Counted from the stretch's first letter, positions 1 through 45,259 are shown. The stretch: 64,000 nt of DNA from Staphylococcus sp. CAG:324 (GCA_000433035.1 FR890814.1:5443-69442), one strand, 5' to 3'. Notes: a model not told the origin generated them from the sequence alone. Program-made: numbers and translations.

Positions 1-347
1 TCTTCAGTTTCTTTATATTTAATCAATCGATGGGTTTTCCAATTTCCATCTATGTATACATAATCTCCTTCTTCAAAACCTTCCATATTATATGTTAATT
101 TATATGGAAATACAGATCCTTCTATATTTAATTTCCATCCTTTTGAATTTCCAATTGGTCTTTCTTCATAATCTGTTTTCTGATAATGACTATTATATAA
201 TAATGACACCATTATTTGGTAGTTTCCTCCACCTAATGCGAATAACGGATACTCATAAATCATTCTTCCCGTTTTAATATGAACATCAACTTTTCCTACA
301 CTATTATGATAACTTATTTCTGATTTATTAATTTTGCTATCATCCAT
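1..347 (-). CDS. Hypothetical protein, N-terminal fragment whose 3' end lies beyond the window start. It is Tyr/Asp/Gly-rich and possibly YD/RHS-like.
   Basis: Minus-strand ATG at 345-347, 3 nt downstream of the preceding stop. The frame stays open to position 1 (MDDSKINKSEISYHNSVGKVDVHIKTGRMIYEYPLFALGGGNYQ...). It is absent from the ORF track because no stop falls inside the window. Confidence 0.35.
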   Translation of the reverse strand, partial: MDDSKINKSEISYHNSVGKVDVHIKTGRMIYEYPLFALGGGNYQIMVSLLYNSHYQKTDYEERPIGNSKGWKLNIEGSVFPYKLTYNMEGFEEGDYVYIDGNWKTHRLIKYKETE

Positions 348-350
348 TTT

Positions 351-1730
351 CTACCACCCTAATTCTTTTAGGACTTTTTCAACTACTTCACTATCTTTTA
401 TTAGTTTCATTGTCGTTTCACTATTACATAATACTCTTCTATTTCCTCTACCACTGATGAAAATAACATCCCCCTCTTTAGAATCAACAATTGCTTCCCT
501 TATTGCTTGCTCTCTATCTTCTATTATCTTTGAAGAAACTTTATCTTCTAAATATCCTTTTAATTCCAAACAGATATCTAGCACTTTTTCTTTGCCATTG
601 TCGCTTTCTGTTAGATATACATCATCTACCTTTTCTTTTAATAACTCCATTGCATACTTTCTTGCTTTTTTACGACTAGCTATAAAATCCGTCGTTTTAA
701 ATCTTGGCTCCCAATTTTGATATCCGTAACCCATTGAACCGATTACAACTTTAATTTGATTGATTTCTTTCTTATCTTTTAGCTTTTGTAAACTTTCTAA
801 TACTTTTGGTAAATGACTATCTATCACTATCATTCTACCTTTTCTTTGATAAACTTCTGATCTTCCTGGTATTTTAATTTTTTGAATACATGTATTATAC
901 TCATTGATATCAAACATTCCCATTGCTTCTAAAACAGTGAGTGCTCCTACAATATTTAATGCATTATAATCCATCATCATTTCCGTTTTTAATGCATATG
1001 TTTTATTTTTAACTTTAACTTTCATTTGCAAGCCTGCTTTTGTACTTTCTAGTTCATATAATAGACTCGTTATATCTTCTTTATTTACTCCCTTTACTGT
1101 CGCAATATAATTGCTACTATAAACATACTTTTTACACTCATTTGCTTCTAACAATTCTTCTAAAAATTCTTTATCATAATCTTCAAAACCATAGATACAT
1201 AAGCTTTCTTTTTCCATTCCCTCAAAGAAGGATTTCTTTATTGCTTTGTACTCTTCTTTGCTATATTGATCTTCATTATGTAATGCATTGAAATTAGTTA
1301 ATACTCTAACATCAAATGGTATATCTTTTGTTAAGCCCTTTTCAATTGCGGTTTCATTAACCTCTAACACTAAGTATTCTGCTCCATATGCTTCTACTTC
1401 TTCAATGATTTCTAATACATCATCTTCACTATTAAATGTTATTTCGCATGCTTCATCTGGTCTAATAATGGTTGCAGGAGAATCTATTTTTGCACTACTA
1501 TATAATACACTTTTCTTTCCCAATCTTTTTAAATACTCATGTATTATATTAGCGACCGTTGTTTTTCCACTGCTACCTGTTATTCCGATAATTTTTATTT
1601 CTTCTTTTCTGTTTTTTTCTTTTGTTACTCCACATTTAAATTCTGCTTTTAATCTTTTTATTTTTCTTGCTTGTTTATTTCTTAGTTCTTTATTGTTTTC
1701 TAATTTTTCTCTTAATTTTGATAGTTTCAT
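351..1730 (-). CDS. Mur ligase family protein. It has the central ATP-binding domain and the C-terminal domain but no N-terminal Mur domain (MurT/CapB/FPGS-like architecture).
   Basis: P-loop GITGSSGKTT and DIPFDVRVLTNFN (Mur ligase central domain). The start was moved to the internal ATG (MKLSKL) preceded by AAAGGAG 8 nt upstream. The track start at 1793 would overlap the upstream gene by 47 nt. Confidence 0.55.
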   Translation of the reverse strand: MKLSKLREKLENNKELRNKQARKIKRLKAEFKCGVTKEKNRKEEIKIIGITGSSGKTTVANIIHEYLKRLGKKSVLYSSAKIDSPATIIRPDEACEITFNSEDDVLEIIEEVEAYGAEYLVLEVNETAIEKGLTKDIPFDVRVLTNFNALHNEDQYSKEEYKAIKKSFFEGMEKESLCIYGFEDYDKEFLEELLEANECKKYVYSSNYIATVKGVNKEDITSLLYELESTKAGLQMKVKVKNKTYALKTEMMMDYNALNIVGALTVLEAMGMFDINEYNTCIQKIKIPGRSEVYQRKGRMIVIDSHLPKVLESLQKLKDKKEINQIKVVIGSMGYGYQNWEPRFKTTDFIASRKKARKYAMELLKEKVDDVYLTESDNGKEKVLDICLELKGYLEDKVSSKIIEDREQAIREAIVDSKEGDVIFISGRGNRRVLCNSETTMKLIKDSEVVEKVLKELGW

Positions 1731-1746
1731 TTTTCTTTCTCCTTTG

Positions 1747-2826
1747 TTAGTCATCTGGGGTAATGGATGCATAATAATATTTGACACTTCCATTTAGACT
1801 TCCCAATTTTATTTCTCTATCACTAGACAAATAAATATGAACTGTAAATGTATATTCTACATAACTTGTTCCCATCATTGCGTTTAAATCCGTTGTTTCT
1901 TTTACTTCTACTTTTACTAAACTTGAATCATTTGCCTTTATCGATACTTCTATCGCACTGGAATAATTATTTTCTACTTCTATATATAATTTTTCACCAT
2001 TGCTTGATGCAATTGTTAACTCATCGGTTTTTAAACTACCTTTTTCTTGTGTCCAACTTACCGCATATGTTTTTGGTAAAAAACTTGTTGATATTACTTC
2101 TACTACAAAATTTTTGGTTGTTGTTACACTTTCATATGTAATTGTTGCTTCTAAGGTTGAATAGGCATCGCTCTCTCCATTATGTACATTGGCTGTATTT
2201 CCTGTAATTGTAATAGATGTTCCCGTTTTAACTACCCATGTAATACTCGAACCATTTGATCCTGCTGATGGTAAAGTAAAATCCGTAGTTACTTTTGTAT
2301 CAATTCTTAAATTATTGCTATCTTCTTCTACTCTTTCGCTTGGTGTCATTTCTCTTAATAAAACTGTTACATGAAAAACTTGTATTGCCTCAGCACTACC
2401 ATAACTCACTCGAGCTTTTAACAAAGGATTTTGTTCATATAACTTTCTATTAACCTTTGCTATATTTTCTTCTATCTCTATTCCTTCTCCTTCAACACTC
2501 CATACAATACTTGATCCATTGATACCTTTTGTTGGCAAAGGAAAATCTTGTGTAATTGCTTCCACATCCACTTCTAATTCTATTTTACTTGCGTCATATT
2601 CTACTCTTTCTTCATCACTCATACTTAAAATTTCTGTTACTTTACTTCTAATTATTAAATCTAAATTTGTTGCATTTATCTGCGTACCTTCTTCATAGAC
2701 TTCCCCTTCATCCCTTTTGACTTCTACTAATAGTACTTCTATTTCACCATTTTCGTTATACTCAATTTCTTCTACTTCTAATCTTCTTCGATTCGGAAAT
2801 TCTGTATTTCTATCTTTTATTTGCAT
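1747..2826 (-). CDS. Phage tail-fibre-like protein. The N-terminus carries an FPNRRRL...EGTQINATNLD motif, followed by two bacterial Ig-like (ABIg-type) repeats.
   Basis: Repeated DFPLPTKGINGSSIVWSVEG / DFTLPSAGSNGSSITWVVKTG motifs. The N-terminal motif is typical of prophage tail-fibre/XkdV-like proteins in Firmicutes. RBS AAGGAG lies 9 nt upstream. Confidence 0.45.
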   Translation of the reverse strand: MQIKDRNTEFPNRRRLEVEEIEYNENGEIEVLLVEVKRDEGEVYEEGTQINATNLDLIIRSKVTEILSMSDEERVEYDASKIELEVDVEAITQDFPLPTKGINGSSIVWSVEGEGIEIEENIAKVNRKLYEQNPLLKARVSYGSAEAIQVFHVTVLLREMTPSERVEEDSNNLRIDTKVTTDFTLPSAGSNGSSITWVVKTGTSITITGNTANVHNGESDAYSTLEATITYESVTTTKNFVVEVISTSFLPKTYAVSWTQEKGSLKTDELTIASSNGEKLYIEVENNYSSAIEVSIKANDSSLVKVEVKETTDLNAMMGTSYVEYTFTVHIYLSSDREIKLGSLNGSVKYYYASITPDD

Positions 2827-2830
2827 TTTC

Positions 2831-3112
2831 TTATTCTCCTTTATTTAATATTTGTTTTATAATTTGATTTGTTCCTGTGGCACTTTCTCCACTAGCAATT
2901 CCTACCACTATGGCTATCCATATATTTTCTGCTTTAAATATTATCTCTGGATTTGTTAGATATATCAATATTCCTAAAATTCCACCCACAATTGCCATCA
3001 CTATTGGTATCAATTTCTTTGCCTCTTTTTTCTTTCTAAATATTACTTTGTATATTTCTCCTATTATATAGCATAGCACTACTATAATTGGTATACTTGT
3101 AAATTCCACCAT
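2831..3112 (-). CDS. Phage holin, A118/Phage_holin_5-like, with three predicted TM segments.
   Basis: TM1, then a K-rich loop, then LIPIVMAIVGGILGIL, then IVVGIASGESATGTNQ. This parallels the Listeria A118 Hol layout (...WLPTVSILIGAILGAL...AGALAGAGGTGLFEQ). RBS AAAGGAG is present. Confidence 0.5.
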   Translation of the reverse strand: MVEFTSIPIIVVLCYIIGEIYKVIFRKKKEAKKLIPIVMAIVGGILGILIYLTNPEIIFKAENIWIAIVVGIASGESATGTNQIIKQILNKGE

Positions 3113-3273
3113 TTTTCTCCTTTCTGATATCTTGTGGTTAGCTACTCCTTTTGATATCCCTGATTTGTAAACAATTAATTAATCTTTACTCCTTCTATTA
3201 TACTTTTCTCTCTTTTCTTTTTTGGTACACTTTGTCCTAAATTTTTCTTTCAATAAAGGGCTTTTTTATTTAG

Positions 3274-3297
3274 TTTTAAGACATATTTGTCTTAAAA
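3274..3297. repeat. Perfect 10-bp inverted repeat TTTTAAGACA-tatt-TGTCTTAAAA in the holin upstream region.
   Basis: Read directly from the sequence. It lies between the ImmA-like gene's 3' end and the holin start. Confidence 0.5.
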
Positions 3298-3301
3298 TAT
3301 T

Positions 3302-3427
3302 AAAAATAGTATTTTTTGTTCATTAAATATATTATTTTTTAGGATACTTTTTCCTAATTTTTTTTAAAAAAATAAAAATAGTATTTTTAAAGTGTCCAAT
3401 TTTGGTGCTTACTTCAAAAATACTATT
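3302..3427. repeat. Two identical direct copies of the 15-mer AAAAATAGTATTTTT (3302-3316 and 3374-3388), plus an inverted partial copy AAAAATACTATT (3416-3427). Each 13-mer is a near-palindrome.
   Basis: Read directly from the sequence. This could be an operator array or simply an AT-rich coincidence. Confidence 0.35.
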
Positions 3428-3434
3428 GTATTTA

Positions 3435-5282
3435 TTATGGTAATCTGATTGATACATCTAATTCTTCTAATCTATTATTCCAAGATGGAAGGCCTTCATT
3501 ATAACATTCTTCAATTAAAAACATAATTATAAAATCTTCTTGTTTTCCTCTATTTCCTATTGTATATCCTGCCTTTTCCATTAATTTATATGTGATTCTT
3601 GGATGTAATTTTAATCCTCCACATATTGCAAGTAGTTTATTTAATTCTGGTATTCTTTTTCCTTTTCGATAATTCCAAATTGTCTTTTCATCTAAAAAAA
3701 CAAGTTCACCTATTATTTTATTAGATTTATATCCCAATTCTTGAATTAAAACATTTAAACATTCTCCAAATGATCCTATCATTTTATCTAAAATTTTACT
3801 TGCTTCGCTTATTTCTTCAAATGCTATATCTGTACATCCCGTAACTCCAATTATCCTACTATTTTGAATTGATTCCATATTCAATTCTAATTTTATATTT
3901 TGTTGGTTACTAGTGTTTTTACAAATATAATAGGAAGAGTATGCCATATTATTTAAATTACTTTGAAAAGTCCCAATTATATTAAAAGCTAGGCAACATT
4001 CATCAACATGTTCTCTTGCATAATCAGTTAAAACTATTTTACCTTTTTTAGATACTTGCACATATTCTTTATGGTTAATCGCAAAAAAGCCATCTGCATA
4101 TATCAGTTTTCTTTCTTTCATTAATGCATCTAACCATTTATTATTTATTCTAAACTGAATGGCTTCCTTAAAACTAATCATATAAGTTAAAGCCTCATCT
4201 TCATTCTGATAATTGAAATAGTATGCTGGCTTATATTCCTTATCAATATAGCAATTGATACCTATTATATTTTTAAAACCTAATTGAAGCAATCTAATTT
4301 TTACAGCTTTTTTAGTGACTTTAAAAAAATTTGCTAAATTAAGAATTGCCCTTTCATATATTTGAGAATTTTTTAAAGTTCCATCTTGGTTTTTAATTTT
4401 TTCAATTGTTGATAAAAATTTTTCAACTGTAACTTTTTTAGGCATTAAAATTCTAGGTGTTAACGCACTTGCTTGCCATTCTAACCACTCTATTTTGTTG
4501 GATATGGACAATGACTTAAATTCTATATCTTCCTTTTTAAATACTATTGGTTTATTTTCTTGATTCAATAGATATTGTAGTTCAAAAAAATTTTTATGAT
4601 ATTCCCAATGGACACATTCATGAATAATTGTATTATTCTGACTTTCAATTAACTTCATAAATTCTGTTTTGTTATTGATTACTATGGTTCCACTTGATAT
4701 AACTCTTTTTTCCTCATTATCCATAGTTTCTTCTGATTCAATAAAATAGGTTTTGCCAAAAATATCTTCATTTAATGGTTCATATATTATTTTTAAATTC
4801 ATTTTATTGGCAATGTCTAAAACAGGCAGAGCCATTGGTTTTTCTAAAGCTTGAGGGCAATATTTTTCTAAAAACTTTGTTGCATGATAATCAAGGGAAG
4901 AAACCGAAAAATAGGGAATTAAATTTTTTGATAAATTCTTCTCTGCCTTATATTGCTTTTTTACATACTCTTCACATTTTAATAAATTCAAATTTTTTAA
5001 ACCATGGTTCAGTTCTGCTTCATAGAGTAATCCTAACCAATATTCAATAATATTTTTGTTTTTTACTTCTATTAATAATTTTAGTGAAACATAAAATTTG
5101 ATTTGATTACATTTTTCGCCTTTTTCAAAAGTAATTTTCATTACTTTGAATTTCTTTAAATTCCAATTATCATCATTTATACATATTTTATTCTCATTTA
5201 TGTATTGAGTTATAATTTTTGTTAATTGTAAACCATACTTTTTTTCAAAATATTCTTTAAAATCCCTATATTTAGTATTCAC
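3435..5282 (-). CDS. Large ImmA/IrrE-family (peptidase M78) metallopeptidase-domain protein of 615 aa.
   Basis: HExxHxxxH motif (IHECVHWEYH) followed by EWQASALTPRILMP, which is the ImmA/IrrE signature. The C-terminal ~300 aa is of unknown function. The gene has a GTG start preceded by GGAGG. Confidence 0.5.
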   Translation of the reverse strand: MNTKYRDFKEYFEKKYGLQLTKIITQYINENKICINDDNWNLKKFKVMKITFEKGEKCNQIKFYVSLKLLIEVKNKNIIEYWLGLLYEAELNHGLKNLNLLKCEEYVKKQYKAEKNLSKNLIPYFSVSSLDYHATKFLEKYCPQALEKPMALPVLDIANKMNLKIIYEPLNEDIFGKTYFIESEETMDNEEKRVISSGTIVINNKTEFMKLIESQNNTIIHECVHWEYHKNFFELQYLLNQENKPIVFKKEDIEFKSLSISNKIEWLEWQASALTPRILMPKKVTVEKFLSTIEKIKNQDGTLKNSQIYERAILNLANFFKVTKKAVKIRLLQLGFKNIIGINCYIDKEYKPAYYFNYQNEDEALTYMISFKEAIQFRINNKWLDALMKERKLIYADGFFAINHKEYVQVSKKGKIVLTDYAREHVDECCLAFNIIGTFQSNLNNMAYSSYYICKNTSNQQNIKLELNMESIQNSRIIGVTGCTDIAFEEISEASKILDKMIGSFGECLNVLIQELGYKSNKIIGELVFLDEKTIWNYRKGKRIPELNKLLAICGGLKLHPRITYKLMEKAGYTIGNRGKQEDFIIMFLIEECYNEGLPSWNNRLEELDVSIRLP

Positions 5283-5428
5283 AATGCCCCGCCTCCATAT
5301 AATCTTTCAACATATTATATCAAATTATGACATTATTTTCCAATTATTTTATAAATATATTTTCTAAATATAAAAAAGGATTAATCAAAAATTAAATTTG
5401 CTTGATTAATTCCTTTTATATTCAAATA

Positions 5429-7165
5429 TTATTCACTAATCTTCTCTAATAATAATACTAAATTATACCCTGAATTTTCCTTATAAGTAATATCAATTTT
5501 ATCACCTACTTGTAAAAATCTAGCATCTAAACATAAGTTAACATCTACTTCAAAATAAACATTTTGATGCTCTTCAACCATAAATTGAATCTTATTACCC
5601 AAATCTCTAATTCTACTTACAGTAACAGTTTCTTTTTCTTCGTTACCTGAGGAAATAATACCTTTGTTAGCAAGCAATAATTCGTATTCTTGTTTAGCTG
5701 CCTCTAATGTATCACCCATTGCCACTAGCGTTCCATCTTCAACATTAATTAAAACTATCTTTTGTGATAGAACATCATTTTTTAAAACTACAAAATAAGT
5801 CGGAACCTTATGATATGTAATTAATATCGGCCAAGTTGAATCTAAATTTTGTGCTTTTACCCTCTCATCATTTTGTGCAATTTCTCTAGCACGCATTTCT
5901 GTAATACCAGGATTGCTATAACGAATACTTTCTTTCGTCTTTAAATTGATGGTAATAAACCCAATTGAAGTTTGATCATTAGAATTAGGTGATGTAATAC
6001 AAGATACATAATATGTATTGCCATCTTTGATAAAATAATTGTATCCATCGCTTAACTGAAAAACTTCCTTTTTGGCAAACAAAGTATTCCAAAAGCCATT
6101 TTTATATGTCAAAGCATTATCCGCTTGTTTGGCGACAACTGCTTCATCCACTGCCCTTTGAAGCCAATCCGGTTTATGATTATCATTTAAAGCATAATGC
6201 GTCATCTTTCCACTACGAGGATCAACAACTAATACTCCATTTGGCGTTTCACCTGAAAATACACCAATTTCTTTTTTTATCGTCGGAATAACCCAATAAG
6301 GATTGCCATCATTATCAATCTCAAAATATTTGTCATTATACATTAATGTTGGATAATTGGTTCTAATATGCCGATCTAAATCTTTACCAAAGATAGCTGA
6401 TGGCATATATTTTAAACCCTCTCCATCTGGATATGCAACAAGTTTTGCTTCTTGAGTTATCACATTTACTTCAATATATCCAATTGTTCCTTTATCACCA
6501 CGCGATAAGGCAACAAAAGGTGTGGCATATTCAAGGGGAGTAACTCTTATTAACTCTGTTTTGTCATTACGATTGACACTAATCAAAGTAAAATTATCAT
6601 AATCAATAGAATATTGAGATCCATATTCATCAAGACGAGCTTCTGCTAGACGAAAAGCTAAATCTTTATCAATACGAGGTAACAATACTTCTCCTGAATC
6701 ATAATCAAAAATCGTATTTAAATCCTCACTATTGCCCTGTTTTATTTCTAATTGATTAGCATAAGCCTTTGCGTTAAAAATTTTAAGACCTGTCAAATTA
6801 AACAAGATAATTATCCCCAAAAAAATACAAACAACAAGAAAAATACCTCTCATTATTAAATGGTTTGTTTGATATTTATCAGTTATATCTTTAAATACTT
6901 TCTCAAATTTGCCTGTTCTTTTATTAAAACGATAAGTTGTATATTTCGTATTTTTATCATTTTTTTGATATCTCTTTTTGATTATAGCATAAATAATTGC
7001 TACAGGAAATGCCAACACAAGCATCAAATAAAAATAAAAACTAATATCTCTAAAATTTAAAAAGGGCAACCAAAAATACCAAAATAAAAACAAGGATAAT
7101 AAATAAACGATATAAATGACAATGTAGTGTTTAGATAACCATTCACATTTTTTCTTTTCTTCCAT
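5429..7165 (-). CDS. Membrane protein with three N-terminal TM helices and a large C-terminal extracytoplasmic domain. Function unknown.
   Basis: The ORF is 578 aa. Hydrophobic segments are at residues ~15-35, ~40-62 and ~103-125. RBS AGGAG is present. Confidence 0.5.
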   Translation of the reverse strand: MEEKKKCEWLSKHYIVIYIVYLLSLFLFWYFWLPFLNFRDISFYFYLMLVLAFPVAIIYAIIKKRYQKNDKNTKYTTYRFNKRTGKFEKVFKDITDKYQTNHLIMRGIFLVVCIFLGIIILFNLTGLKIFNAKAYANQLEIKQGNSEDLNTIFDYDSGEVLLPRIDKDLAFRLAEARLDEYGSQYSIDYDNFTLISVNRNDKTELIRVTPLEYATPFVALSRGDKGTIGYIEVNVITQEAKLVAYPDGEGLKYMPSAIFGKDLDRHIRTNYPTLMYNDKYFEIDNDGNPYWVIPTIKKEIGVFSGETPNGVLVVDPRSGKMTHYALNDNHKPDWLQRAVDEAVVAKQADNALTYKNGFWNTLFAKKEVFQLSDGYNYFIKDGNTYYVSCITSPNSNDQTSIGFITINLKTKESIRYSNPGITEMRAREIAQNDERVKAQNLDSTWPILITYHKVPTYFVVLKNDVLSQKIVLINVEDGTLVAMGDTLEAAKQEYELLLANKGIISSGNEEKETVTVSRIRDLGNKIQFMVEEHQNVYFEVDVNLCLDARFLQVGDKIDITYKENSGYNLVLLLEKISE

Positions 7166-7174
7166 TTTTTTCTC

Positions 7175-7627
7175 CTATTCATAAATCACATTTTTTAAAT
7201 CTATTCTCATCTCACCAATCACATGATTTAAATATTTTTGAAAAGCCTTAGCTTCTTCTAAAAATTTTGTAAGATATTTTATTTTAATTTCTTCACTACA
7301 TGTATTCATTTCATTATATTTAAAATATCGGTGAACAAGTTGATTTCTTTTTGACAATATGCTTTCTAAATAATCCATATCATCACTTGGCAAAACATCA
7401 TATTTTCTGACAATTCCCATTAATTGACCAAAAGTCATATTTTCCATTTCCTCTGCTAATTTTTTAGTTTCTTCATCTATTTTTTGAAAATAAAGTGGAG
7501 AAACCTTCTTATATTTTGTAAAGACATTTAAAATTTTTGCAATTTTTGTTCCTTCAATTAAATAATGTTCTATATTTTGTACACTTTCAATTATCTTCCC
7601 TACTAAATAATATGTATCATTTTCCAT
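7175..7627 (-). CDS. Hypothetical protein of 150 aa.
   Basis: Intact ORF in an operon-like arrangement with the flanking minus-strand genes. Confidence 0.4.
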   Translation of the reverse strand: MENDTYYLVGKIIESVQNIEHYLIEGTKIAKILNVFTKYKKVSPLYFQKIDEETKKLAEEMENMTFGQLMGIVRKYDVLPSDDMDYLESILSKRNQLVHRYFKYNEMNTCSEEIKIKYLTKFLEEAKAFQKYLNHVIGEMRIDLKNVIYE

Positions 7628-16422: not shown

Positions 16423-17208
16423 TTATTTTCGCTTAGATTGAATTTTATAGGCAATATATCTTATTAATCTTCTTGGAGCAAATCTAGTTGCAAAAATCAT
16501 TAATCTATTATTAAAACCATATATAGCAACTACCTTATTCTGCATCATCTTCTTATATCCATATTTCGCAACTTTTTGAGGTGAAGCTGGTTTTAAATTT
16601 TTTAATAAATTGCTATCATTGGCACTTGCAACATCAAAAAAATTAGTTTTAGTCGTTCCAGGACAAAGAGCAGTAACTGTCACCTTTGCTGTTTTCAATT
16701 CTTTGCTTAAAGCCTCACTAAATGATAACACAAATGATTTAGTAGCATAATAGGTTGCCATTAGTGGTCCTGGAATAAATGATGCAATTGAAGCAACATT
16801 CATAATTTTGCCAAAACCATACGCTTTCATATCTTTAGCATATAAATAACATAAATCAATTAAACTAATAATATTAATATGAACCATGTTATGATTCTTA
16901 ATCATAGAACTATCTAAAAATTCACCATAATCGCCAAATCCAGCATTATTTATTAAATAATCCACTCGACAACCCAATTCTTTGGTCTTTTGATAAATTT
17001 CAGTAGCCACATTATGGATAGTCAAATCAGCTACAATTACTTCAATCTTAATATTATACTCTTTTGTTAAATTATCCTTTAACTTGATTAATACATCTTT
17101 ACTTCTAGCTACTAAAATTAAGTTATGATGATTTTTAGCAAATATTTTTGTTAGTTCAAGTCCAATACCTTTACTAGCACCAGTTATTAATGTATAACCT
17201 TCTTTCAT
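16423..17208 (-). CDS. SDR family oxidoreductase.
   Basis: TGASKGIG glycine-rich NAD(P)-binding motif and a YxxxK catalytic motif. Confidence 0.75.
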   Translation of the reverse strand: MKEGYTLITGASKGIGLELTKIFAKNHHNLILVARSKDVLIKLKDNLTKEYNIKIEVIVADLTIHNVATEIYQKTKELGCRVDYLINNAGFGDYGEFLDSSMIKNHNMVHINIISLIDLCYLYAKDMKAYGFGKIMNVASIASFIPGPLMATYYATKSFVLSFSEALSKELKTAKVTVTALCPGTTKTNFFDVASANDSNLLKNLKPASPQKVAKYGYKKMMQNKVVAIYGFNNRLMIFATRFAPRRLIRYIAYKIQSKRK

Positions 17209-17209
17209 T

Positions 17210-18226
17210 TTATGCTGGATCTACCTTTTTATAATTTGCAATATATACTTTTTCTATTGTTTTTTCCTCTTTTTCCCAATAATTATACGTATCTTTTCTC
17301 TTAAATATTGCATATTGTATTTGATTTCTTTCTTCAAAACCTAAAAATTCATAACCAGCAACTCTCATTGAATCAAATTTAGATGTTGGATGCTTTAAAA
17401 TTACGCCAGGTATATGATCTAAAGCATATTTTACTCTAAAGGATTGCCAGTGGTAGACAGTTTCAGATGTTAAATAAAATAATTTAGATGTATCTACCAA
17501 AGCAGCCCATGAAGAATGAAAAAATTCATCAGCATGATTGTAAGGATTAAGACATGTGCACCCTTCATCGTTACGCCACCAAGCAAAAAAAGTAATTAAA
17601 AAATTTAAGAAATCAATAAATTTGTTATTTTTAAAACAGTATCCAATAAAAGTACTTTCAGGTTGATTTTCAATTGTACCTTTTTCTTGTGGCGTTAAAT
17701 AATATTTATGAAAGGAAAATCCCATTGCATAGCAACTATCTTGATTATCTGCATACCAATCAGCATATGCATAAAAATCTTTTTTGTTAAAGATTTTATG
17801 ATTTTCTAAATCTTCTTTGCCATCATGATGTAAAATAAATTCATAAAACTCTCCATAAAAAGCTTCAAATAATTCTTTTTTACTATTCCAAAAATCAACA
17901 CCAATTTTATGACTATCAATTTCATATTTAAAAGGTTCTATTTCATAATCTACAGCTATACTTGATGTTGTATTTGCATGCATATGGGTCTTTACAACTT
18001 CACAGTGATAAGAATCATTTTGATAGTTTTCTAAATCTTCTTTATTATTAAAATACGTTTCTAAAATTATATCATATGATCTTGTTGAAGATAAAAAATC
18101 TACTCCTACCTTCAAATCTAATAACATAGGTACTCTTCCTTGCATGGAAAGCAAAATATCCTTTGTTTTCTTACGTAATTCTATGCTATCATTTTTTAAT
18201 TTAAAGCAAACAACATGTTTTATCAT
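17210..18226 (-). CDS. Dabb (stress-responsive A/B-barrel) domain fused to a ~230-aa domain of unknown function.
   Basis: N-terminal MIKHVVCFKLKND...LENYQNDSYHCEV is Dabb-like. The C-terminal region is unassigned. Confidence 0.4.
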   Translation of the reverse strand: MIKHVVCFKLKNDSIELRKKTKDILLSMQGRVPMLLDLKVGVDFLSSTRSYDIILETYFNNKEDLENYQNDSYHCEVVKTHMHANTTSSIAVDYEIEPFKYEIDSHKIGVDFWNSKKELFEAFYGEFYEFILHHDGKEDLENHKIFNKKDFYAYADWYADNQDSCYAMGFSFHKYYLTPQEKGTIENQPESTFIGYCFKNNKFIDFLNFLITFFAWWRNDEGCTCLNPYNHADEFFHSSWAALVDTSKLFYLTSETVYHWQSFRVKYALDHIPGVILKHPTSKFDSMRVAGYEFLGFEERNQIQYAIFKRKDTYNYWEKEEKTIEKVYIANYKKVDPA

Positions 18227-18261
18227 TTTTAAAATTCTCCTCCATTTTATTCATTTATTAT

Positions 18262-19041
18262 TTATCCTAAGGTTATGTCCAATACCATCATAAGGACAAA
18301 CCCAACTGCTACTCCTATTGTGGCAAGATTAGAATGTTGCCCATCTTGCGATTCTGGTATCAACTCTTCTACAATTACATAAATCATTGCTCCTGCAGCA
18401 AAAGCTAATAAATATGGTATAGTAGGACTTATAATTTGAGTTAAAAATATTGTAATTAAAGCTCCCATAATTTCAGCAAGTCCTGATAAAACACCATAAA
18501 AAAATGATTTCGTTTTGGATAAACCTTCTGTTTTTAAAGGCATCGAAATAATTGCTCCTTCTGGAAAATTTTGAATTGCAATTCCGATTGCAAGAACAAA
18601 AGCACTAGACATTGAAATTTCAACATTTCCCATATATGCACTAGCTAGAACAATTCCCACAGCCATACCTTCGGGAATATTATGTAGCGTTACCGCAAAC
18701 ATTAACATTGTTGTTTTTTTGAATTTAGATTTTACACCTTCTGGTTTATCACTTTTTAAATGTAAATGAGGAATAATACTATCTAACAATAATAGAAAAC
18801 CCATTCCTAGTAAAAAACCAAGAGCAGCAGGAAACCATGATAAATTGCTAAGTTGAGAGGATTGTTCAATTGCGGGAATCAATAATGACCAAATAGAAGC
18901 AGCCATCATCACACCTGAGGCAAATCCTAATAAAATCTTTTCTAATTTATTATTAATTTTATTCTTCATGAAGAAAACCATTGCTGCTCCAAGACATGTA
19001 CCAATAAATGGTATGAAAATACCAATTGATATTTCAAACAT
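18262..19041 (-). CDS. zupT: ZIP family zinc/metal transporter.
   Basis: HNIPEGMAVG and GLAEIMGAL ZIP signatures with an 8-TM profile. Confidence 0.8.
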   Translation of the reverse strand: MFEISIGIFIPFIGTCLGAAMVFFMKNKINNKLEKILLGFASGVMMAASIWSLLIPAIEQSSQLSNLSWFPAALGFLLGMGFLLLLDSIIPHLHLKSDKPEGVKSKFKKTTMLMFAVTLHNIPEGMAVGIVLASAYMGNVEISMSSAFVLAIGIAIQNFPEGAIISMPLKTEGLSKTKSFFYGVLSGLAEIMGALITIFLTQIISPTIPYLLAFAAGAMIYVIVEELIPESQDGQHSNLATIGVAVGFVLMMVLDITLG

Positions 19042-36753: not shown

Positions 36754-36801
36754 ATTTAAACCAAACTCTCAAAAAGGTTCTAGGAGGAACCTTTTTTGAT
36801 T
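36720..36801. repeat. Left copy of an 82-bp direct repeat, comprising the last 34 nt of the yjcZ-like CDS plus its bidirectional terminator (AAAAAGGTTC-taggag-GAACCTTTTT).
   Basis: It matches 45378-45459 at 81 of 82 positions. Confidence 0.8.
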
Positions 36802-38537
36802 TATATTTTATCACTAATCTTTTTTAACATATTGTTAAAAGTAGAATTTTTTCGTTCTCTTAATTGTTTTATAGTTCCATACTCAATAATTTTACCATCA
36901 TTCATTACAATTACTTTGTCACAATTTAAAATATTATAAATACGATGAGAAGTAATCAACATTATTTTATCATTCATTTTATATAATTTACTTAATATAT
37001 CTTTTTCATTTGTTACATCTAGTGCTGAGGTGATTTCATCTAATAAAAATAATTTAGCATTTTTGTATATTGCATTTGCAATATTAATACGTTGAATTTC
37101 ACCACCTGATAAATTATCCTCATAATTTGAAATTTTTGTTTTATCTTTTTCTGGCAAACTTTCAATTAAATTATTTAATTTAGCCTCTTCTATACTTTTT
37201 TGATAATTTTTTTCATCAAATTCAAGTGGATAAATAATATTATCCCTTATACTAACATTAAATAATTTTAAATCTTGTTGTACATATGCAATATTATTTC
37301 TCAAAGAAAATAAACTAATTTTATTTAAATCTATATTATTAATAAGAATTTGTCCTTCATTAGGAATTATGATTCTAGTTATTAAATCAAAAAGTGTTGT
37401 TTTCCCTCCTCCAGACATTCCTACTATACCTAATTTTTCTCCTTTTTCAACTTTAAAATTTAATTTTTTTACTTCGAACAATCCATCACCATATTTAAAA
37501 CTTACATCAATAAATTCAATACTATAGATATCGTCTATATTAATACCATCATATATATTTGTTTCTGGTTCTATGCTATAAATTTCATCCAGCTTTTCCA
37601 TAGAATTTTTTATAATTTTTGAAGAAATATTTACATTTAATAGCACTCTAAAAGAGCTATAAATTTTAGGTATTATTGTTAAAAAAGATATTAATATACC
37701 AGTTGTTATAGTACTAAAATCTTTTATAATATACCATATTCCAATAAAAATTATTACAATATACATTATATTTATTATTAAATCTCCCATTATAAATCTA
37801 TTTAAGCTATGAGTAATTGAAGTCTTTTTTTTATGCTTATAAAGGCTATCAAGCCATAAATTAAATTTTTCATTTTCCTTTTGGTGGCCATTTGTTATTT
37901 TAATTTTTTTTATTCTTTTGCATGAAGTCAAAATTAATTCTTGACCACTTTCTAAAATCTCAATATATTCTTTATCATTTTTTTTACTAATCTTGGAAAT
38001 AAATTTAGCTAAAAAATAAAATAGAGGAAATAAAGCAAAAATAATTATTGCAAATTTTTTATCAATTTTAATCATTGTTATAACAACAATTAATAAAAAT
38101 ATACTTTCAGAAAAAAAGCCAACAATATCATTTACAAAATAAACTTCTCCAATCTTCCCTGTTTCTCTAGTTATTCTTGACATAACCTGAGAATCACTAT
38201 ATTTATTTATTTTTAAATATTTTGCATTTAATACACACTCAAAAGCAGTCCTTCTCAATGATGAAGTAATATAATTACCAAGCTTAGTTGATAAAAATGT
38301 TTTAAAAATATCTAATAATAATAACGATAATGATATACTAATCATTTTAATTATTATTATTATTAACAAATTTACATCTTTATTAGGAACTACTTTATCT
38401 ATGATATCTACTATTATTAATGAATTCTTTAATTTTAAATAGGAAATTGCTATCATTAAAATTATTAATATTATTATTATAAATATTTGTTTTTTTGTAC
38501 AATTTACAAGTATTTTATGTGTATTAATTGTTTTCAT
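36801..38537 (-). CDS. ABC transporter with fused permease and ATPase domains (lasso peptide D-type exporter; RiPP export and immunity).
   Basis: N-terminal 6-TM domain. Walker A GMSGGGKTT, signature LSGGE and Walker B LLDEITSALD. Its stop codon abuts the direct repeat. Confidence 0.75.
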   Translation of the reverse strand: MKTINTHKILVNCTKKQIFIIIILIILMIAISYLKLKNSLIIVDIIDKVVPNKDVNLLIIIIIKMISISLSLLLLDIFKTFLSTKLGNYITSSLRRTAFECVLNAKYLKINKYSDSQVMSRITRETGKIGEVYFVNDIVGFFSESIFLLIVVITMIKIDKKFAIIIFALFPLFYFLAKFISKISKKNDKEYIEILESGQELILTSCKRIKKIKITNGHQKENEKFNLWLDSLYKHKKKTSITHSLNRFIMGDLIINIMYIVIIFIGIWYIIKDFSTITTGILISFLTIIPKIYSSFRVLLNVNISSKIIKNSMEKLDEIYSIEPETNIYDGINIDDIYSIEFIDVSFKYGDGLFEVKKLNFKVEKGEKLGIVGMSGGGKTTLFDLITRIIIPNEGQILINNIDLNKISLFSLRNNIAYVQQDLKLFNVSIRDNIIYPLEFDEKNYQKSIEEAKLNNLIESLPEKDKTKISNYEDNLSGGEIQRINIANAIYKNAKLFLLDEITSALDVTNEKDILSKLYKMNDKIMLITSHRIYNILNCDKVIVMNDGKIIEYGTIKQLRERKNSTFNNMLKKISDKI

Positions 38538-39852
38538 TTGTATACCTCTTGTTAAAAATAGTATATTTTAGATTATAATCTATATCATTTTTTTTATAAT
38601 TTATATTTAAATTACTATTATTTAATTTCTCTATCATATAAAACTTTAATATTTTAAAAACAAGTTGGCACCAATTATAATTAAAATCATTAGTATTATC
38701 ATATATTGCTTTACAACCACCTCCACAATGATAAAATGCAAAACATTTATTACAATTTTTTAATTTATCATTATTATTTTTTACTATATTATTAACATTA
38801 TTATTATCTATTTCTATAGTTTTATTTATCTCCCCTATTTTATATAAATTATTTTTTGAATTTTTATCAAATTGAATGCAAGATGTTAAAAATCCATTTG
38901 GATGACAATATATTGTATTTAACGAAGTTCCTTTACAATATCCATTTAATCTCAATTCTTCACCTATAAAAGATTTAGCTCTTTCTTTTAGTACTTTTCT
39001 AGCATCTTTATATATATTTAAATATTCATCATTACTAATAGTATTTATAAAATTATTTCCATCAATAGTAGGAACATATCTTGTAAACTGAACTGATGAT
39101 AATTTTGGAACATTATTTAAAAAAAATTTAGCAATTTTTTCACCAAATCCAATTGATTTATTGGTTAATACTGTATTAAAACTAACTTTGCAATTATTTT
39201 CAGAAATGTATCTAGCATTTTTAATTACTATCATTGTAATGTCCTTACCAGATATACTCTGCCTAGTAAAACCATTTATTTCTGAAGGTCCATCAATTGA
39301 AAAACATACTTCATTAAAATTTTCACTTAACCATTTAGCTTGATTTATACTAAAAAAACCATTTGTTATTATTCTTTTCAAACAAAGAGTATTATTTTCT
39401 TTGCATTTTTTTATTGCATATTGAATAAATCTTTTTAATAATGAAAAATTATATGTTGGCTCACCACCGCCATGAAAAGTTAAGTCAATCCATGGAGTTT
39501 TTTTATTAATAATTTTAGCATTATTTATTAATATATTTACTATTTTTTTATATTTATTAAAACTTAGAAAACTATTATTACAATTAGTGCCAGAAGATGA
39601 ATAACAATATTTACACTTTAACATACATTTGTTACTTATAATTATTGTAGCAGAATTCCCATAATATTTATTCCCTATTATCAATCTAGTTTTGCTATTA
39701 AATTTATTAATTGTTCTACAACCTAAATACTTAAAAACTATATTATTTATATCTTCTATATCCAAATCATTTGCTTCTATTACTAAATCATATTTTGGAA
39801 CATAATAAAATTTTTCCAATTTAAATACATTTAACACATTTTTTTCCTCCAT
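38524..39852 (-). CDS. Radical SAM enzyme with a C-terminal SPASM domain (RiPP maturase).
   Basis: CMLKCKYC is a Cx3Cx2C motif. The C-terminal Cys cluster is CKGTSLNTIYCHPNGFLTSC...CNKCFAFYHCGGGCKAIY. The ~70-aa N-terminal extension may be an RRE. Confidence 0.75.
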   Translation of the reverse strand: MEEKNVLNVFKLEKFYYVPKYDLVIEANDLDIEDINNIVFKYLGCRTINKFNSKTRLIIGNKYYGNSATIIISNKCMLKCKYCYSSSGTNCNNSFLSFNKYKKIVNILINNAKIINKKTPWIDLTFHGGGEPTYNFSLLKRFIQYAIKKCKENNTLCLKRIITNGFFSINQAKWLSENFNEVCFSIDGPSEINGFTRQSISGKDITMIVIKNARYISENNCKVSFNTVLTNKSIGFGEKIAKFFLNNVPKLSSVQFTRYVPTIDGNNFINTISNDEYLNIYKDARKVLKERAKSFIGEELRLNGYCKGTSLNTIYCHPNGFLTSCIQFDKNSKNNLYKIGEINKTIEIDNNNVNNIVKNNNDKLKNCNKCFAFYHCGGGCKAIYDNTNDFNYNWCQLVFKILKFYMIEKLNNSNLNINYKKNDIDYNLKYTIFNKRYTNENN

Positions 39853-39865
39853 TTAAAACTATAAG

Positions 39866-39884
39866 GGAGGATTAATACCTCCCA
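39866..39884 (-). promoter_or_regulatory. GC-rich intercistronic stem-loop GGGAGG-uauuaau-CCUCCC between the precursor and rSAM genes.
   Basis: 6-bp G/C stem in otherwise ~20 % GC DNA. Only a weak U-tract follows, suggesting a partial terminator or processing/stability element of the kind common after RiPP precursor genes. Confidence 0.4.
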
Positions 39885-39902
39885 CTTTGATAAACGTATT
39901 AA

Positions 39903-40016
39903 TTAAGCACATTTATCATAACCATAACCATCATCATTATCTTTTCCAGTTGAACCAGTTAATTCAAACATATCACCTAAAATAATATATGATGGCTTTT
40001 CATAATTATTATTCAT
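39903..40016 (-). CDS. Lasso peptide precursor of 37 aa: MNNNYEKPSYIILGDMFELTG | STGKDNDDGYGYDKCA.
   Basis: RBS AAAGGAGGTG lies 7 nt upstream. The leader matches YxxPxLx3Gx5Tx (Y5, P8, G14, T20; only L is replaced by Y), with the penultimate leader residue Thr. The core begins with Ser, has Asp at positions 7 and 8 for isopeptide formation, and has bulky Tyr in the tail. This is the only sizeable intergenic gap in the operon. Confidence 0.6.
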   Translation of the reverse strand: MNNNYEKPSYIILGDMFELTGSTGKDNDDGYGYDKCA

Positions 40017-40031
40017 TATTGACACCTCCTT

Positions 40032-41468
40032 TCAGACTTTTAATACGGGAAACCTTGATATTTCAATAAATTGCTTTTTTATTATATTAGAATCAGTAAT
40101 AACTATTTCATCTATTTCTACCCATGAATGAAATTCGAATAAATTAGTAATATGATACGAAGATTTACCAATTACGACTTGAGATGGAATTCCAATAGTA
40201 ATTAGTGCTGTACACAAAGATATTGATCTTTCTAAGCATAGCATACCTTCATTATTTTCTTTACCAATCTTACGTAAAATCGGAATAATTTTACTAACAT
40301 AATTACAAAAATCAATACTAGAATAGTTTAAAGTGTTTTGTTCAATTAAATATTTATTTTTATGAAACAAAGTATTTATTAGTTTTATAGCATAAGAAAC
40401 CCCTTTTTTATGAATTAATGAAATAGATTTTATATAATTTCTAGTCATATGTTCAAAATCCGTAGAATTTATTTCAAAAGAATTTTTGACCAATTCTTCG
40501 TTATACAAAAGAGTCATTAATTTATCATAACAAAATGTTTCATTTATATCCATATATAATTGGTTAACATTACATACATTTGGATAATTAACTATATATT
40601 TATCAACATTATTAGCTAAATTAATTAACAAATTTATTTTCTTGTTTAAAAATGGACTCAATATATTTGTTTGATAATTTAAAATATTTTTTATAAAATT
40701 ATAATTATTCAATAATTCTATTTGATATATATTATTTTTTTTAGTTCCTAAAATTATAACTTTACTTAATTTTATAGTATTTTGATATTGTATATTTTGG
40801 AAATAATATTTTTTACTTTTTGTTAATAAAACACTATCAAAATCTATTGGTTGCTTATCTAAACTTTTTTTTATTCCAATACCAACATTAATTCCTTGAC
40901 AATTCAATTGTTTATCTATTATACAAAAAACATCATCACTCAAAATTTCATAATTATATTTATTATTTAATTCTATAGATATTGATGTCTTACCATACCC
41001 AGACTTTCCCAACAACGCTACTCCTTCATTTGTTGTTTTATTAACCAATAATGCTCCATGAAAAATTATTTTGTTATTTTCTAAAAACGCAATGGATAAT
41101 GGATCTAAAAAATACTGAAAAAACATATTTCTTTTATTATATATTTTTTTTATATAGAAAATAAACTTTTTTTTCAAAAATAACCATTTTGCATAACTTC
41201 CATCTTTATAAAAAATATTATATTCTTGATTGTTTTTATCATAAATAAAACTACCAATTAATAATTCATATTTAATTCCTTTCTTATGAATTTTGGGTAT
41301 ATAATTATTATCAAAATTATATTCAAATATGTAACTTTCCTTATTTGCTATATGATTATTTTTACAATTTGAACCTAAAATATTGAATATAAAATTTGTA
41401 TTTTCTAAATCATTCGTTTTTATTTCAAAATTTTCACCAAATACATTAAATTTTAGTATATCATTCAT
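40032..41468 (-). CDS. Fusion protein with an N-terminal HPr-kinase-like (HprK C-terminal domain) kinase and a C-terminal lasso B2 transglutaminase-like leader peptidase.
   Basis: The kinase part reads FHGALLV...GVALLGKSGYGKTSISIEL...ILSDDVFCI, which follows the HprK P-loop pattern HG.lv..G.G.L..G.SG.GKSE.aLEL....L..DD. The peptidase part reads EGMLCLERSISLCTALITIGIPSQVVIGKSS...FEFHSWVEIDEIVITD, giving a Cys-His-Asp triad as in McjB-type B2. Confidence 0.6.
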   Translation of the reverse strand: MNDILKFNVFGENFEIKTNDLENTNFIFNILGSNCKNNHIANKESYIFEYNFDNNYIPKIHKKGIKYELLIGSFIYDKNNQEYNIFYKDGSYAKWLFLKKKFIFYIKKIYNKRNMFFQYFLDPLSIAFLENNKIIFHGALLVNKTTNEGVALLGKSGYGKTSISIELNNKYNYEILSDDVFCIIDKQLNCQGINVGIGIKKSLDKQPIDFDSVLLTKSKKYYFQNIQYQNTIKLSKVIILGTKKNNIYQIELLNNYNFIKNILNYQTNILSPFLNKKINLLINLANNVDKYIVNYPNVCNVNQLYMDINETFCYDKLMTLLYNEELVKNSFEINSTDFEHMTRNYIKSISLIHKKGVSYAIKLINTLFHKNKYLIEQNTLNYSSIDFCNYVSKIIPILRKIGKENNEGMLCLERSISLCTALITIGIPSQVVIGKSSYHITNLFEFHSWVEIDEIVITDSNIIKKQFIEISRFPVLKV

Positions 41469-41721
41469 TTATCAATATTCCAATACTTATCATACTATTA
41501 ACAAATTCGTTGTAATCTTTTTCAATTATACTTGTATCTATATTATATTTTTCTTTCATAAATTGAATAATTTCAAACGAAGTTTTTCCCTTTTTTATTA
41601 AATCTAAAATACAATAACTTGTATAATTTATAGAAATAAATTGTCCATTATTTAAATTAGTAATAATTGCTTCTTCATCTATTAAAGTAATATCAACATT
41701 TTTAGATATATTTAATTTCAT
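41461..41721 (-). CDS. Lasso B1 protein (PqqD-like RiPP recognition element).
   Basis: At 86 aa it fits a PqqD-family fold (TSFEIIQFMKEKYNIDTSIIEKDYNEFVNSMISIGIL). It overlaps both neighbouring genes. Confidence 0.65.
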   Translation of the reverse strand: MKLNISKNVDITLIDEEAIITNLNNGQFISINYTSYCILDLIKKGKTSFEIIQFMKEKYNIDTSIIEKDYNEFVNSMISIGILINE

Positions 41722-43258: not shown

Positions 43259-43274
43259 AATTAATACCTACATT

Positions 43275-44759: not shown

Positions 44760-44782
44760 TAAAATATTTTAAATATAAAATT

Positions 44783-45259
44783 TTATAATAAAAATTCACA
44801 TAATGTTTGATTATTATAATCCCCATAATAATAATCTATCAATTCTAAAGATTTTCCATTTATTTTAAATAACTCTAAATTAATATTTTTTTGTGAAATA
44901 TTTTTAAAAAATTCTATATCTTTTTTTACTATTTTTTGAATTTCTAATTGTTTTATATATGAATTTATAGTAAACTCACTTAAACTTTTAGACAAATTTA
45001 AACTTTCAATTTCATAACAATATTCCATTGAATCATAATTTATTGGCATACTATTGGTAACAAATATATTATTATTATCATTTCTAATTATTATTGGGTA
45101 ATTGCAATTATAATTATCTATAAAATTAATAAATAAAATATAATTAATAAAAGTGATTTGGTTATCAAAAAAGCAATTGATTATTAATTTTTCATTTTTT
45201 AAAATAATTTGTATTTTAATATCTCTTACTTTAGTATTAATAATTTTTTTAGATTCCAT
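44783..45259 (-). CDS. Hypothetical protein of 158 aa, the first gene of the island operon.
   Basis: Intact ORF with a GGAGG RBS. Confidence 0.35.
   Translation of the reverse strand: MESKKIINTKVRDIKIQIILKNEKLIINCFFDNQITFINYILFINFIDNYNCNYPIIIRNDNNNIFVTNSMPINYDSMEYCYEIESLNLSKSLSEFTINSYIKQLEIQKIVKKDIEFFKNISQKNINLELFKINGKSLELIDYYYGDYNNQTLCEFLL

Follow-up and report, generated by a model that had tools for sequence, protein, structure and literature searches.

We analysed the minus-strand genes at positions 1-5282 of a 64,000-nt stretch of Staphylococcus sp. CAG:324 (GCA_000433035.1 FR890814.1:5443-69442), the whole of which is called the window below. The host, a low-GC bacterium of the class Bacilli, has not been cultured; it belongs to an abundant human-gut lineage whose NusA was found on >1,000 contigs. 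An earlier note on this DNA had described an odd string of five genes here, and all five open reading frames (ORFs) were confirmed at their positions when we checked the translations. We consider it probable that they represent a regulator gene together with the promoter-proximal half of a conserved operon for the production and release of a polymorphic Rhs toxin. The features of the region, with the evidence on which each was assigned, are the following:

1..347, minus strand: first 115 codons of a predicted Rhs/YD-repeat polymorphic toxin, the remainder lying left of the window (translation)
351..1730, minus strand: MurE-derived two-domain ligase, 459 amino acids (aa) (Pfam, NCBIfam, PDB profile, AlphaFold2/Foldseek)
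1747..2826, minus strand: accessory protein X, 359 aa (Pfam aBig_2 twice, AlphaFold2, Foldseek, alignment)
2831..3112, minus strand: Hol44-family phage-type holin, 93 aa (Pfam PF16079, PHROG_1129)
3113..3434, no strand: AT-rich candidate control region of 322 nt, from the regulator gene to the holin gene (repeat scan)
3435..5282, minus strand: candidate regulator of the M78-helix-turn-helix (M78-HTH) type, 615 aa (PHROG, motifs, HTH profile matches)
5314..5343, minus strand: best promoter-like site upstream of the regulator gene (consensus scan, weak)

The intergenic gaps between the Rhs fragment, the ligase, X and the holin are 3, 16 and 4 nt in the window; the last of these separates the holin stop codon from the ATG of X, whose ribosome-binding site, AAAGGAG, lies inside the 3' end of the holin gene. 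The exact ligase protein of the window is present on 12 public contigs. Extension of the locus to the left, which the earlier note had proposed, was done through near-identical public contigs and uncovered the rest of the Rhs gene; as the window's leftward extension we used the locus that we numbered L002 (GCA_018377585.1), which is 99.93% identical over 11.4 kb. The 115-codon fragment extends there to 1,634 aa and a 160-aa ORF comes next. The order of the operon is holin, X, two-domain ligase, Rhs toxin and small variable ORF.

The Rhs toxin and the conserved module

The Rhs proteins of the module are 1,594-1,634 aa long (~185 kDa). The 1-347 fragment gave a weak, sub-threshold Pfam match to DUF6531. 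A profile built from 12 sequences of the family matched solved Rhs proteins at 1e-47, and also Rhs cores of type VI secretion systems, teneurins and TccC. RHS_repeat was detected by Pfam in 11 of these 12 members (best 4.8e-15), the protein of the window's own lineage being weak (0.005), and PT-HINT and DUF6531 were each found in 4 of the 12 large proteins. On three contigs the Rhs proteins are identical to about residue 1365 and unrelated beyond, each being followed by a different small ORF; the core ends in RYYSPELCRF...NDPxNxxDPxGH, after which comes unrelated sequence that usually opens with a hydrophobic, glycine-rich stretch. Among 14 loci of one species whose ligases are 99-100% identical, we counted at least 11 C-terminal domains unrelated to one another. 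The variable ORFs of 131-191 aa directly 3' of the toxin genes are presumably immunity genes, and orphan PT-HINT cassettes with a SUKH-3 immunity gene lie downstream in L010. Because of the extension, the variable C-termini and the profile and Pfam matches, the Y/D-rich protein of the earlier note is identified, on its sequence, as the N-terminus of a polymorphic Rhs toxin, in line with that note's further suggestion of a polymorphic-toxin module continuing past the window start, the next gene having both a hypervariable C-terminus and a variable ORF downstream. No signal peptide was seen on reading the Rhs sequences, and no LXG or WXG domain was detected in them by Pfam.

The N-terminal half of the Rhs protein also contains an inserted region (residues ~380-560 in L001 coordinates), for which one homologue gave a match to Laminin_G_3, a concanavalin-like lectin family (7.6e-7); this insert could be a receptor-binding domain.

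Homologues of the ligase that are ~450 aa long and, like it, without the N-terminal domain 1 of MurE were found only in uncultured gut metagenome-assembled genomes (MAGs) labeled 'Bacilli bacterium', 'Acholeplasmatales bacterium' and 'Erysipelotrichales bacterium'. Wherever a locus is covered far enough, an X homologue stands before the ligase and an Rhs gene after it, and this order is kept at 55% ligase identity in L007-L011 and at 58-33% in L012-L017. It was also seen, down to 34% ligase identity, in ~60 metagenome loci from human and other animal guts and from fermentation samples. Contig ODUN01000006.1 (322 kb) carries two paralogous modules, L097 and L114, with ligases 53% identical, one of them accompanied by a regulator of the 615-aa type and the other by one of 638 aa. 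The flanks differ between species and hold housekeeping genes, and the modules occupy unrelated chromosomal sites.

This distribution bears on two readings raised in the earlier note. That the string is a decayed prophage end, a remnant of a lysis cassette beside unrelated genes, is in our opinion very improbable: the holin and the 615-aa regulator do belong to phage-borne families and a serine recombinase lies downstream in L001, but the four-gene core stays together from species to species although its chromosomal site changes, and no capsid, tail or terminase genes occur within 10 kb of the module, nor did PHROG scans of the genes upstream in L016 reveal any. Moreover, neither X nor the ligase clade was matched in 50,697 phage records, and a scan of 2.9 million viral contigs turned up a single match, distant and frameshifted. 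An anti-phage defence or abortive-infection module seems to us less credible still; the company of a membrane-damaging protein, an enzyme and a protease-HTH sensor would suit it, as would an AAA_21-like gene further left in L002, yet PADLOC returned no match for any of six window proteins and the main conserved partner is a polymorphic toxin with variable cassettes and small ORFs, a signature of inter-bacterial antagonism.

The recombinase of L001 is a 530-aa serine recombinase (Resolvase/Recombinase/Zn_ribbon_recom) at 16830-18422; together with two small ORFs it is inserted right after the post-Rhs ORF and before a 640-aa gene; in L002 that 640-aa gene directly follows the post-Rhs ORF. A Zn_ribbon_recom remnant was also present upstream of the module in L007-9. 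The insertion and the remnant hint at site-specific mobility or cassette exchange.

Holin, regulator and the proposed release of the toxin

The 93-aa protein is a phage holin according to both Pfam (Phage_holin_5_2, PF16079; 51 bits against a cut-off of 29.2) and PHROG (PHROG_1129, holin, 1e-14), with hydrophobic helices at residues ~6-24, 34-52 and 63-78. It had been called an A118-type holin; the holin assignment stands, while the family is Hol44 instead, which belongs, like A118, to holin superfamily V. Orthologues 60-70% identical lie directly before X in most loci, and in L007 and L010 the holin and X reading frames overlap. In L129, L133 and L135 the membrane protein of the module is not Hol44 but Holin_LLH (PF09682, E ~1e-5, at the gathering score). 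This non-orthologous replacement is our strongest argument that a holin function belongs to the system and is needed by it, since distant loci carry a holin of an unrelated family in the same module.

Among the precomputed Pfam matches of five annotated contexts (L001, L002, L007-9, L010-11), no endolysin-type or other peptidoglycan hydrolase family was found within +-10 kb. Compared with a type 10 secretion system (T10SS), the module therefore has the holin and, within 10 kb, no dedicated peptidoglycan hydrolase. In the lineages named for the carrier genomes, peptidoglycan is predicted to be thin, atypical or absent, penicillin-binding proteins and endopeptidases to be few, and sortases to be lacking in some orders; the peptidoglycan pathways of these lineages are of the meso-diaminopimelate (m-DAP) type but incomplete (PMC10868615). 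Because of these predicted thin, atypical or missing walls, release without an endolysin is plausible. The signal-less Rhs toxin is probably released by the holin in a T10SS-like manner.

The 615-aa protein gave no match in the initial Pfam scan of the window proteins and is a full-length member of phrog_4031 (8.4e-125), with homologues in Ruminococcus phages and in prophages of Streptococcus suis. Four aligned homologues keep the motifs HExxHW, EWQA..RILMP (the M78 signature) and HxDECC (role unassigned); in the window copy HECVH is encoded at 4608-4622, followed by EWQA..RILMP. Peptidase_M78 (PF06114) matched 4/4 family members, the best at 8.6e-8 and the window copy at 0.22 (11.7 bits against a cut-off of 22). 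The C-terminal 100 residues hold an XRE-type helix-turn-helix (about 3573-3785), as detected by profile comparison with the PDB (HigA 8e-5, C.BclI 1e-4, P22 C2), and Pfam found HTH_3 in 2 of the 4 members. By these motifs and matches the protein is probably an M78 (ImmA/IrrE-like) peptidase, fused to an XRE helix-turn-helix; the peptidase of the earlier note is borne out at the level of the family, by the HExxH and the M78 likeness, and the XRE partner whose absence it remarked upon sits at the C-terminus of the same chain. In ImmA/ImmR (ICEBs1, phage phi105) and IrrE/DdrO, an M78 zinc peptidase and an XRE repressor typically form a de-repression switch. The protein of the module differs from these in the fusion of peptidase and HTH and in having an extra N-terminal region of ~200 aa and the conserved HxDECC region in its middle. 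A 638-aa homologue, 30% identical, occupies the matching pre-holin position in L007-9, L114-118, L123 and L132.

The AT-rich region between the regulator and the holin genes (3113-3434) contains two copies of TTAGGAnAAAGTnTnCCnAAAAAA in minus-strand reading, at 3215-3246 and 3332-3363, three copies of AAAAATAGTATT(TTT) and a palindrome, TTTTAAGACA/TGTCTTAAAA, at 3274-3297, all of which could be operators or promoter elements; a scan of the control region gave no terminator-like site. The promoter-like site at 5314-5343 reads TTGGAA-18-TATAAT with a TG (10/12 consensus), in a region whose site total is not above shuffled expectation.

We propose that the M78-HTH protein would repress the operon until, on a signal, proteolysis inactivates it in the manner of ImmA/ImmR or IrrE/DdrO. 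From then on the Rhs toxin would build up in the cytoplasm, neutralised by the presumed immunity protein, until the holin permeabilises the membrane and the ~185-kDa toxin leaves the cell together with X, a type 10 secretion that would work without an endolysin. This scheme of a repression and proteolysis switch, cytoplasmic build-up and holin release strikes us as fairly probable when taken as a whole.

Several observations weigh against it. A recognisable holin is missing in several loci, L134, L143 and L016 carrying a protein with four transmembrane (4-TM) segments of unassigned family, and L014 and L015 are cut off or unclear at the holin position. About half of the loci have, in place of the M78-HTH gene, one for a small XhlA-like membrane protein (95 aa, membrane plus coiled-coil, phrog_1863), and an HTH_3 gene and a 165-aa sigma/HTH-like gene stand upstream in L010; since other groups carry different genes at this position, the regulator is linked to the module but exchangeable and not obligatory. 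Besides, holin export, regulation by the M78-HTH protein and the activity of the ligase are all proposed from linkage and motifs.

The missing holins would also agree with a toxin that is exported by a system encoded elsewhere, either a type VIIb secretion system (T7SSb) or Sec with some other factor, the holin then serving altruistic lysis or being a leftover. The Gram-positive Rhs toxins known to date do use a Sec signal (WapA) or associate with T7SSb. Still, we find this explanation improbable: the Rhs protein has neither a signal peptide nor, by Pfam, LXG/WXG domains, the holin gene is tightly packed with that of X (by a 4-nt gap, or by the overlapping frames of L007 and L010) and 60-70% conserved across species, and the replacement by another holin family would be hard to explain if the holin were dispensable. 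Thus, of the holin-dependent export locus envisaged in the earlier note, the export part gains from the conserved linkage and the holin replacement; the cargo suggested there, a cell-wall-modifying enzyme, is another matter, because an ATP-dependent ligase presumably works in the cytoplasm and is unlikely to be exported. The likely cargo is the Rhs toxin, perhaps with X.

The Mur-like ligase and protein X

Pfam found Mur_ligase_M (4.5e-24) and Mur_ligase_C (4.9e-10) in the ligase and no other domains. Against the NCBIfam model TIGR01085 (murE) it scored 147.9 bits, the cut-off being 257.3, and it stayed far below the cut-off of every NF0011xx model; cyanophycin synthetase was also among the NCBIfam matches. 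It aligns to residues 80-471 of MurE models and 102-481 of the Thermotoga maritima enzyme (PDB 4bub). Because these alignments start at ~80-102, the ligase is, as judged from sequence, without the N-terminal UDP-MurNAc-binding domain 1 and is not a MurE proper, so that murE is the wrong name for its gene; the place of the domain is taken by ~42 aa of basic helices, which open with a conserved MKLxxLKxKLE. The gene starts at 1730 with this family-conserved MKL... N-terminus, a 480-aa reading from 1793 overlapping the upstream gene. The N-terminally truncated Mur-ligase-like protein of the earlier note is thus borne out as regards the Mur domains and the missing domain 1, and not as a truncated ORF.

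The P-loop GSSGKTT is encoded at 1557-1577, and K56, E123, H151, K165, N259 and R290 are invariant across 25 homologues. They correspond to catalytic positions established in MurD and MurE: K56 to the P-loop lysine, E123 and H151 to the Mg ligands, K165 to the position of the carbamylated lysine, and N259 and R290 to the adenine-binding Asn and Arg. An AlphaFold2 model (predicted local distance difference test score, pLDDT, 83.8; predicted template modelling score 0.85) superposed best on MurE in Foldseek (template modelling score 0.70), with further matches to MurF, MurC, MurT and the M domain of cyanophycin synthetase; identity to T. maritima MurE is ~22% over the structural alignment. The ligase therefore resembles MurE and MurT in sequence, fold and conserved ATP/Mg catalytic residues, and MurT in the lack of domain 1 as well. 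The points of difference are the absence of the UDP-binding domain and of a GatD partner, scores below every MurE equivalog cut-off, a DNPR motif that is kept in part, and linkage to a toxin and not to the division and cell-wall (dcw) gene cluster.

With E<=1e-30 as the limit, an exhaustive profile search set the ligase family apart as a group of ~92 representatives; the matches listed below this group align from residue ~90-100 of ~490-aa proteins, as full-length MurE would. We rejected a housekeeping murE on several grounds, namely the loss of domain 1, the sub-cut-off scores, the separate clade, the two paralogues on one contig and the constant company of X and Rhs. The earlier note had sketched an ordinary prophage with an amidase endolysin nearby and a housekeeping ligase in conserved synteny, and neither was seen. 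There were no ligase-X or ligase-Rhs fusions among 150 representatives. Of the long matches, six sequences were inspected: one is a duplicated canonical MurE and the rest are a distant ligase variant with inserts.

Side observations on this family include more distant domain-1-less Mur-like ligases of 530-620 aa with large inserts (P0266, P0274, P0285, P0299 and P0248), and a frameshifted copy from the distant insert-bearing group (L174, 1503-3092), which has an Ala/Thr-rich fibre-like protein next to it on a 6.4-kb IMG/VR contig. The domain-1-less ligase carries the Joint Genome Institute label 'UDP-N-acetylmuramoylalanyl-D-glutamate--2,6-diaminopimelate ligase' (cluster members P0162-P0165). 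Peptidoglycan predictions for reduced Bacilli that are based on KEGG orthology (PMC10868615) could count it as murE, a false wall signal.

Protein X, without a signal peptide, has two aBig_2 Ig-like repeats (Pfam, 80 bits). Its AlphaFold2 model (pLDDT 86.6) consists of an N-terminal beta-hairpin and helices (residues 14-80), the two aBig Ig-like domains, a C-terminal beta-sandwich (254-351) and an eight-residue unstructured tail that ends in S-I-T-P-D-D, with codons at 1750-1767. Foldseek retrieved only generic Ig arrays with this model (S-layer proteins, cadherins, contactins). Searches for homologues gave 7 and 25 matches, so few because X evolves fast, and the homologues were taken from the module loci instead. 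Among them the middle is variable, with 0-2 aBig repeats, and the N-terminus is unrelated in some clades; the C-terminal sandwich and the tail are always kept.

The earlier note had called X a tail-fibre-like Ig-repeat protein. The Ig repeats held up; a phage tail fibre is not supported by the fold search, nor by tblastn, in which neither X nor its N-terminal 70 aa found a match in the phage records, nor by PHROG, where the sole match was a family of unassigned function over the aBig region. A DRxxxYPNR N-terminus may resemble that of Firmicute tail fibres.

In a 15-sequence alignment, S354 and the last residue, D359, are the only invariant positions in the C-terminal half of X, and the tail has the consensus S-[TIV]-x-[PG]-x-D. 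Where the ligase gene is intact, the X encoded before it ends in Asp in 30/32 distinct sequences, in Glu in one and in Ile in one, the latter probably a frameshifted locus. The terminal Asp codon alternates between GAT and GAC, and in most loci the Shine-Dalgarno sequence of the ligase lies after the X stop codon; for these two reasons the conservation of the tail acts on the protein. A constraint by the ribosome-binding site was accordingly rejected as the cause for most loci, and only the Gly-Val codons of the L142/L143/L016 clade leave room for it.

This clade is the most divergent one (ligase identity 36-38%; L016 is an Erysipelotrichales MAG) and has a second X-like protein of 319-342 aa, at 3688-4695 in L143, 11335-12294 in L016 and 298-1326 in L142. 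In L142 it lies upstream of the ligase and has a ...GVND tail; in L143 it lies downstream of the ligase and ends in ...LEYNYLT, without the tail, the 319-aa ORF of L016 being in the matching position. Fibre-like proteins of 280-363 aa stand with the 4-TM protein upstream in L016, and similar genes occur in L134 and L143.

X always lies immediately upstream of the ligase where there is enough sequence. The group activated by MurE is the side-chain carboxylate of a terminal D-Glu, a residue whose alpha-carboxylate is free, and a C-terminal Asp would present the same two-carboxylate geometry. The M domain of cyanophycin synthetase (CphA1), also a Mur-ligase-like module without the UDP-binding domain, phosphorylates the side chain of the newly added C-terminal Asp of a peptide chain and then adds Arg (PMC9262961); it differs from the module ligase in being fused to ATP-grasp and N domains and in acting on a polymer, the module ligase being closer to MurE and its proposed activity directed at a protein tail. 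Without domain 1, the enzyme would also have space for a macromolecular substrate. On account of the invariant adjacency, the terminal Asp, the domain loss and the CphA1 precedent, X is the most economical candidate for the carboxylate substrate of the ligase, a proposal we make tentatively.

Before release, the ligase would spend ATP to activate a carboxylate of the terminal Asp and join it to an amine, supplied by an amino acid (Lys, DAP or Arg, for example) or by a lysine of some other protein. In this way X would be armed to serve the toxin as adaptor, anchor or targeting module. That modification of X precedes release in this way is possible, though we would not call it likely. Slightly more doubtful is the specific form in which the enzyme is a protein ligase that adds a diamino acid or a protein lysine to the Asp and so creates either a stem-like handle or a covalent X-toxin conjugate. 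If true, a peptidoglycan-stem-like handle would allow sortase-independent wall anchoring in lineages without sortases, a conjugate would target the holin-released toxin, and either would mean that proteins are ligated post-translationally by a new class of reaction and that polymorphic toxins are delivered on a new principle.

Two points tell against X as substrate or limit the proposal. The conserved tail of X might instead be a signal for docking or for export. The meso-DAP motif of MurE, DNPR, is D-N-G-K in the ligase, with the Asp alone invariant, and conservation this partial does not allow the amine partner to be predicted.

A different substrate, a peptidoglycan precursor such as lipid II or a muropeptide, handled in a MurT-like way, would fit the closest sequence and fold relatives of the ligase, which are MurE enzymes, with MurT among the structural matches. 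A cross-link-blocking residue could then weaken the wall of the producer locally and replace the endolysin, missing in all annotated contexts, once the holin has fired; alternatively, the producer wall would be altered to resist its own toxin, X being an unrelated adaptor or chaperone. The m-DAP-type though incomplete pathways of the host lineages (PMC10868615) are likewise in its favor. We nevertheless think it unlikely, as the UDP-binding domain is absent and the invariant C-terminal Asp of the adjacent upstream gene would be left unexplained. The hallmarks of MurT, a Cys4 insert and a DUF1727 C-terminal domain, were not seen either (Pfam gave Mur_ligase_M and Mur_ligase_C only), nor was a GatD-like partner. 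As for self-protection, the toxin domain is hypervariable and the ligase constant, which makes a toxin-specific role unlikely.

Related systems and neighboring genes

By function the locus groups with polymorphic Rhs toxin systems and with holin-dependent, T10SS-like release. The nearest precedent is the T10SS of Yersinia entomophaga, which releases Rhs-cocoon Tc toxins through a holin/endolysin/spanin cassette (PMC10847048), and holin-dependent toxin export is known more generally (PMC9527704). Common to the Yersinia system and the module is a very large, signal-less Rhs-type (YD-shell) toxin that is genetically coupled to a phage-derived holin. The former is Gram-negative and needs the endolysin and the spanin, whereas the module has no peptidoglycan hydrolase nearby, invariably contains the Mur-like ligase and the Ig-like protein, belongs to a Bacilli lineage predicted to be thin-walled or wall-reduced, and encodes a polymorphic toxin of antibacterial style with small variable ORFs downstream.

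Clostridial loci, such as TcdE of Clostridioides difficile and TpeE and UviB of Clostridium perfringens, pair a signal-less toxin or bacteriocin with a holin-like protein, sometimes with a dedicated small sigma factor. The module resembles them as a Firmicute combination of a large signal-less toxin and a small holin-like protein, and the 165-aa sigma/HTH-like gene upstream in L010 is a further likeness; the clostridial holins are of other families, TcdE belonging to another holin superfamily, their cargo is not Rhs, and ligase and X are lacking. Gram-positive Rhs toxins include WapA of Bacillus subtilis and S. suis (PMC12704120) and a T7SSb-associated toxin of Listeria (PMC10327511). These share with the module the Rhs shell and the polymorphic C-terminal toxin, and their downstream immunity gene would have its equivalent in the small variable ORF, but they have a Sec signal with wall-binding domains or a T7SSb link, while the module has neither and brings accessory genes of its own.

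In full-text searches of the literature, no paper connected a Mur ligase with Rhs, holins or polymorphic toxins, and none reported ligation of a protein by a Mur-type enzyme. Polymorphic Rhs toxins rank among the main weapons with which bacteria compete, and few routes for their export are known in Gram-positive and wall-reduced bacteria; the module points to a holin-based route needing no endolysin, in an abundant uncultured lineage of the human gut. It also presents a Mur-type ligase recruited into a toxin system. Should X be the substrate, this would mean a new protein-modifying activity for a well-studied enzyme family.

Two other parts of the window deserve mention. Between the regulator and a SIS-domain gene (5429-7627) two proteins are encoded, one of 578 aa that matched no family and whose first ~125 residues hold hydrophobic helices, the other of 150 aa with weak HEPN-like matches; they do not accompany the module in other species. 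At 36801-45259, on the minus strand, the GC content falls to 18-20%, compared with ~28% elsewhere, and the genes encode Asn_synthase-like, Transglut_core3 and NTP_transf_5 proteins, a radical S-adenosylmethionine (rSAM) enzyme and an ABC exporter. From these families, the region looks like a cluster for a ribosomally synthesised and post-translationally modified peptide of the lasso-peptide type with an extra rSAM tailoring enzyme.

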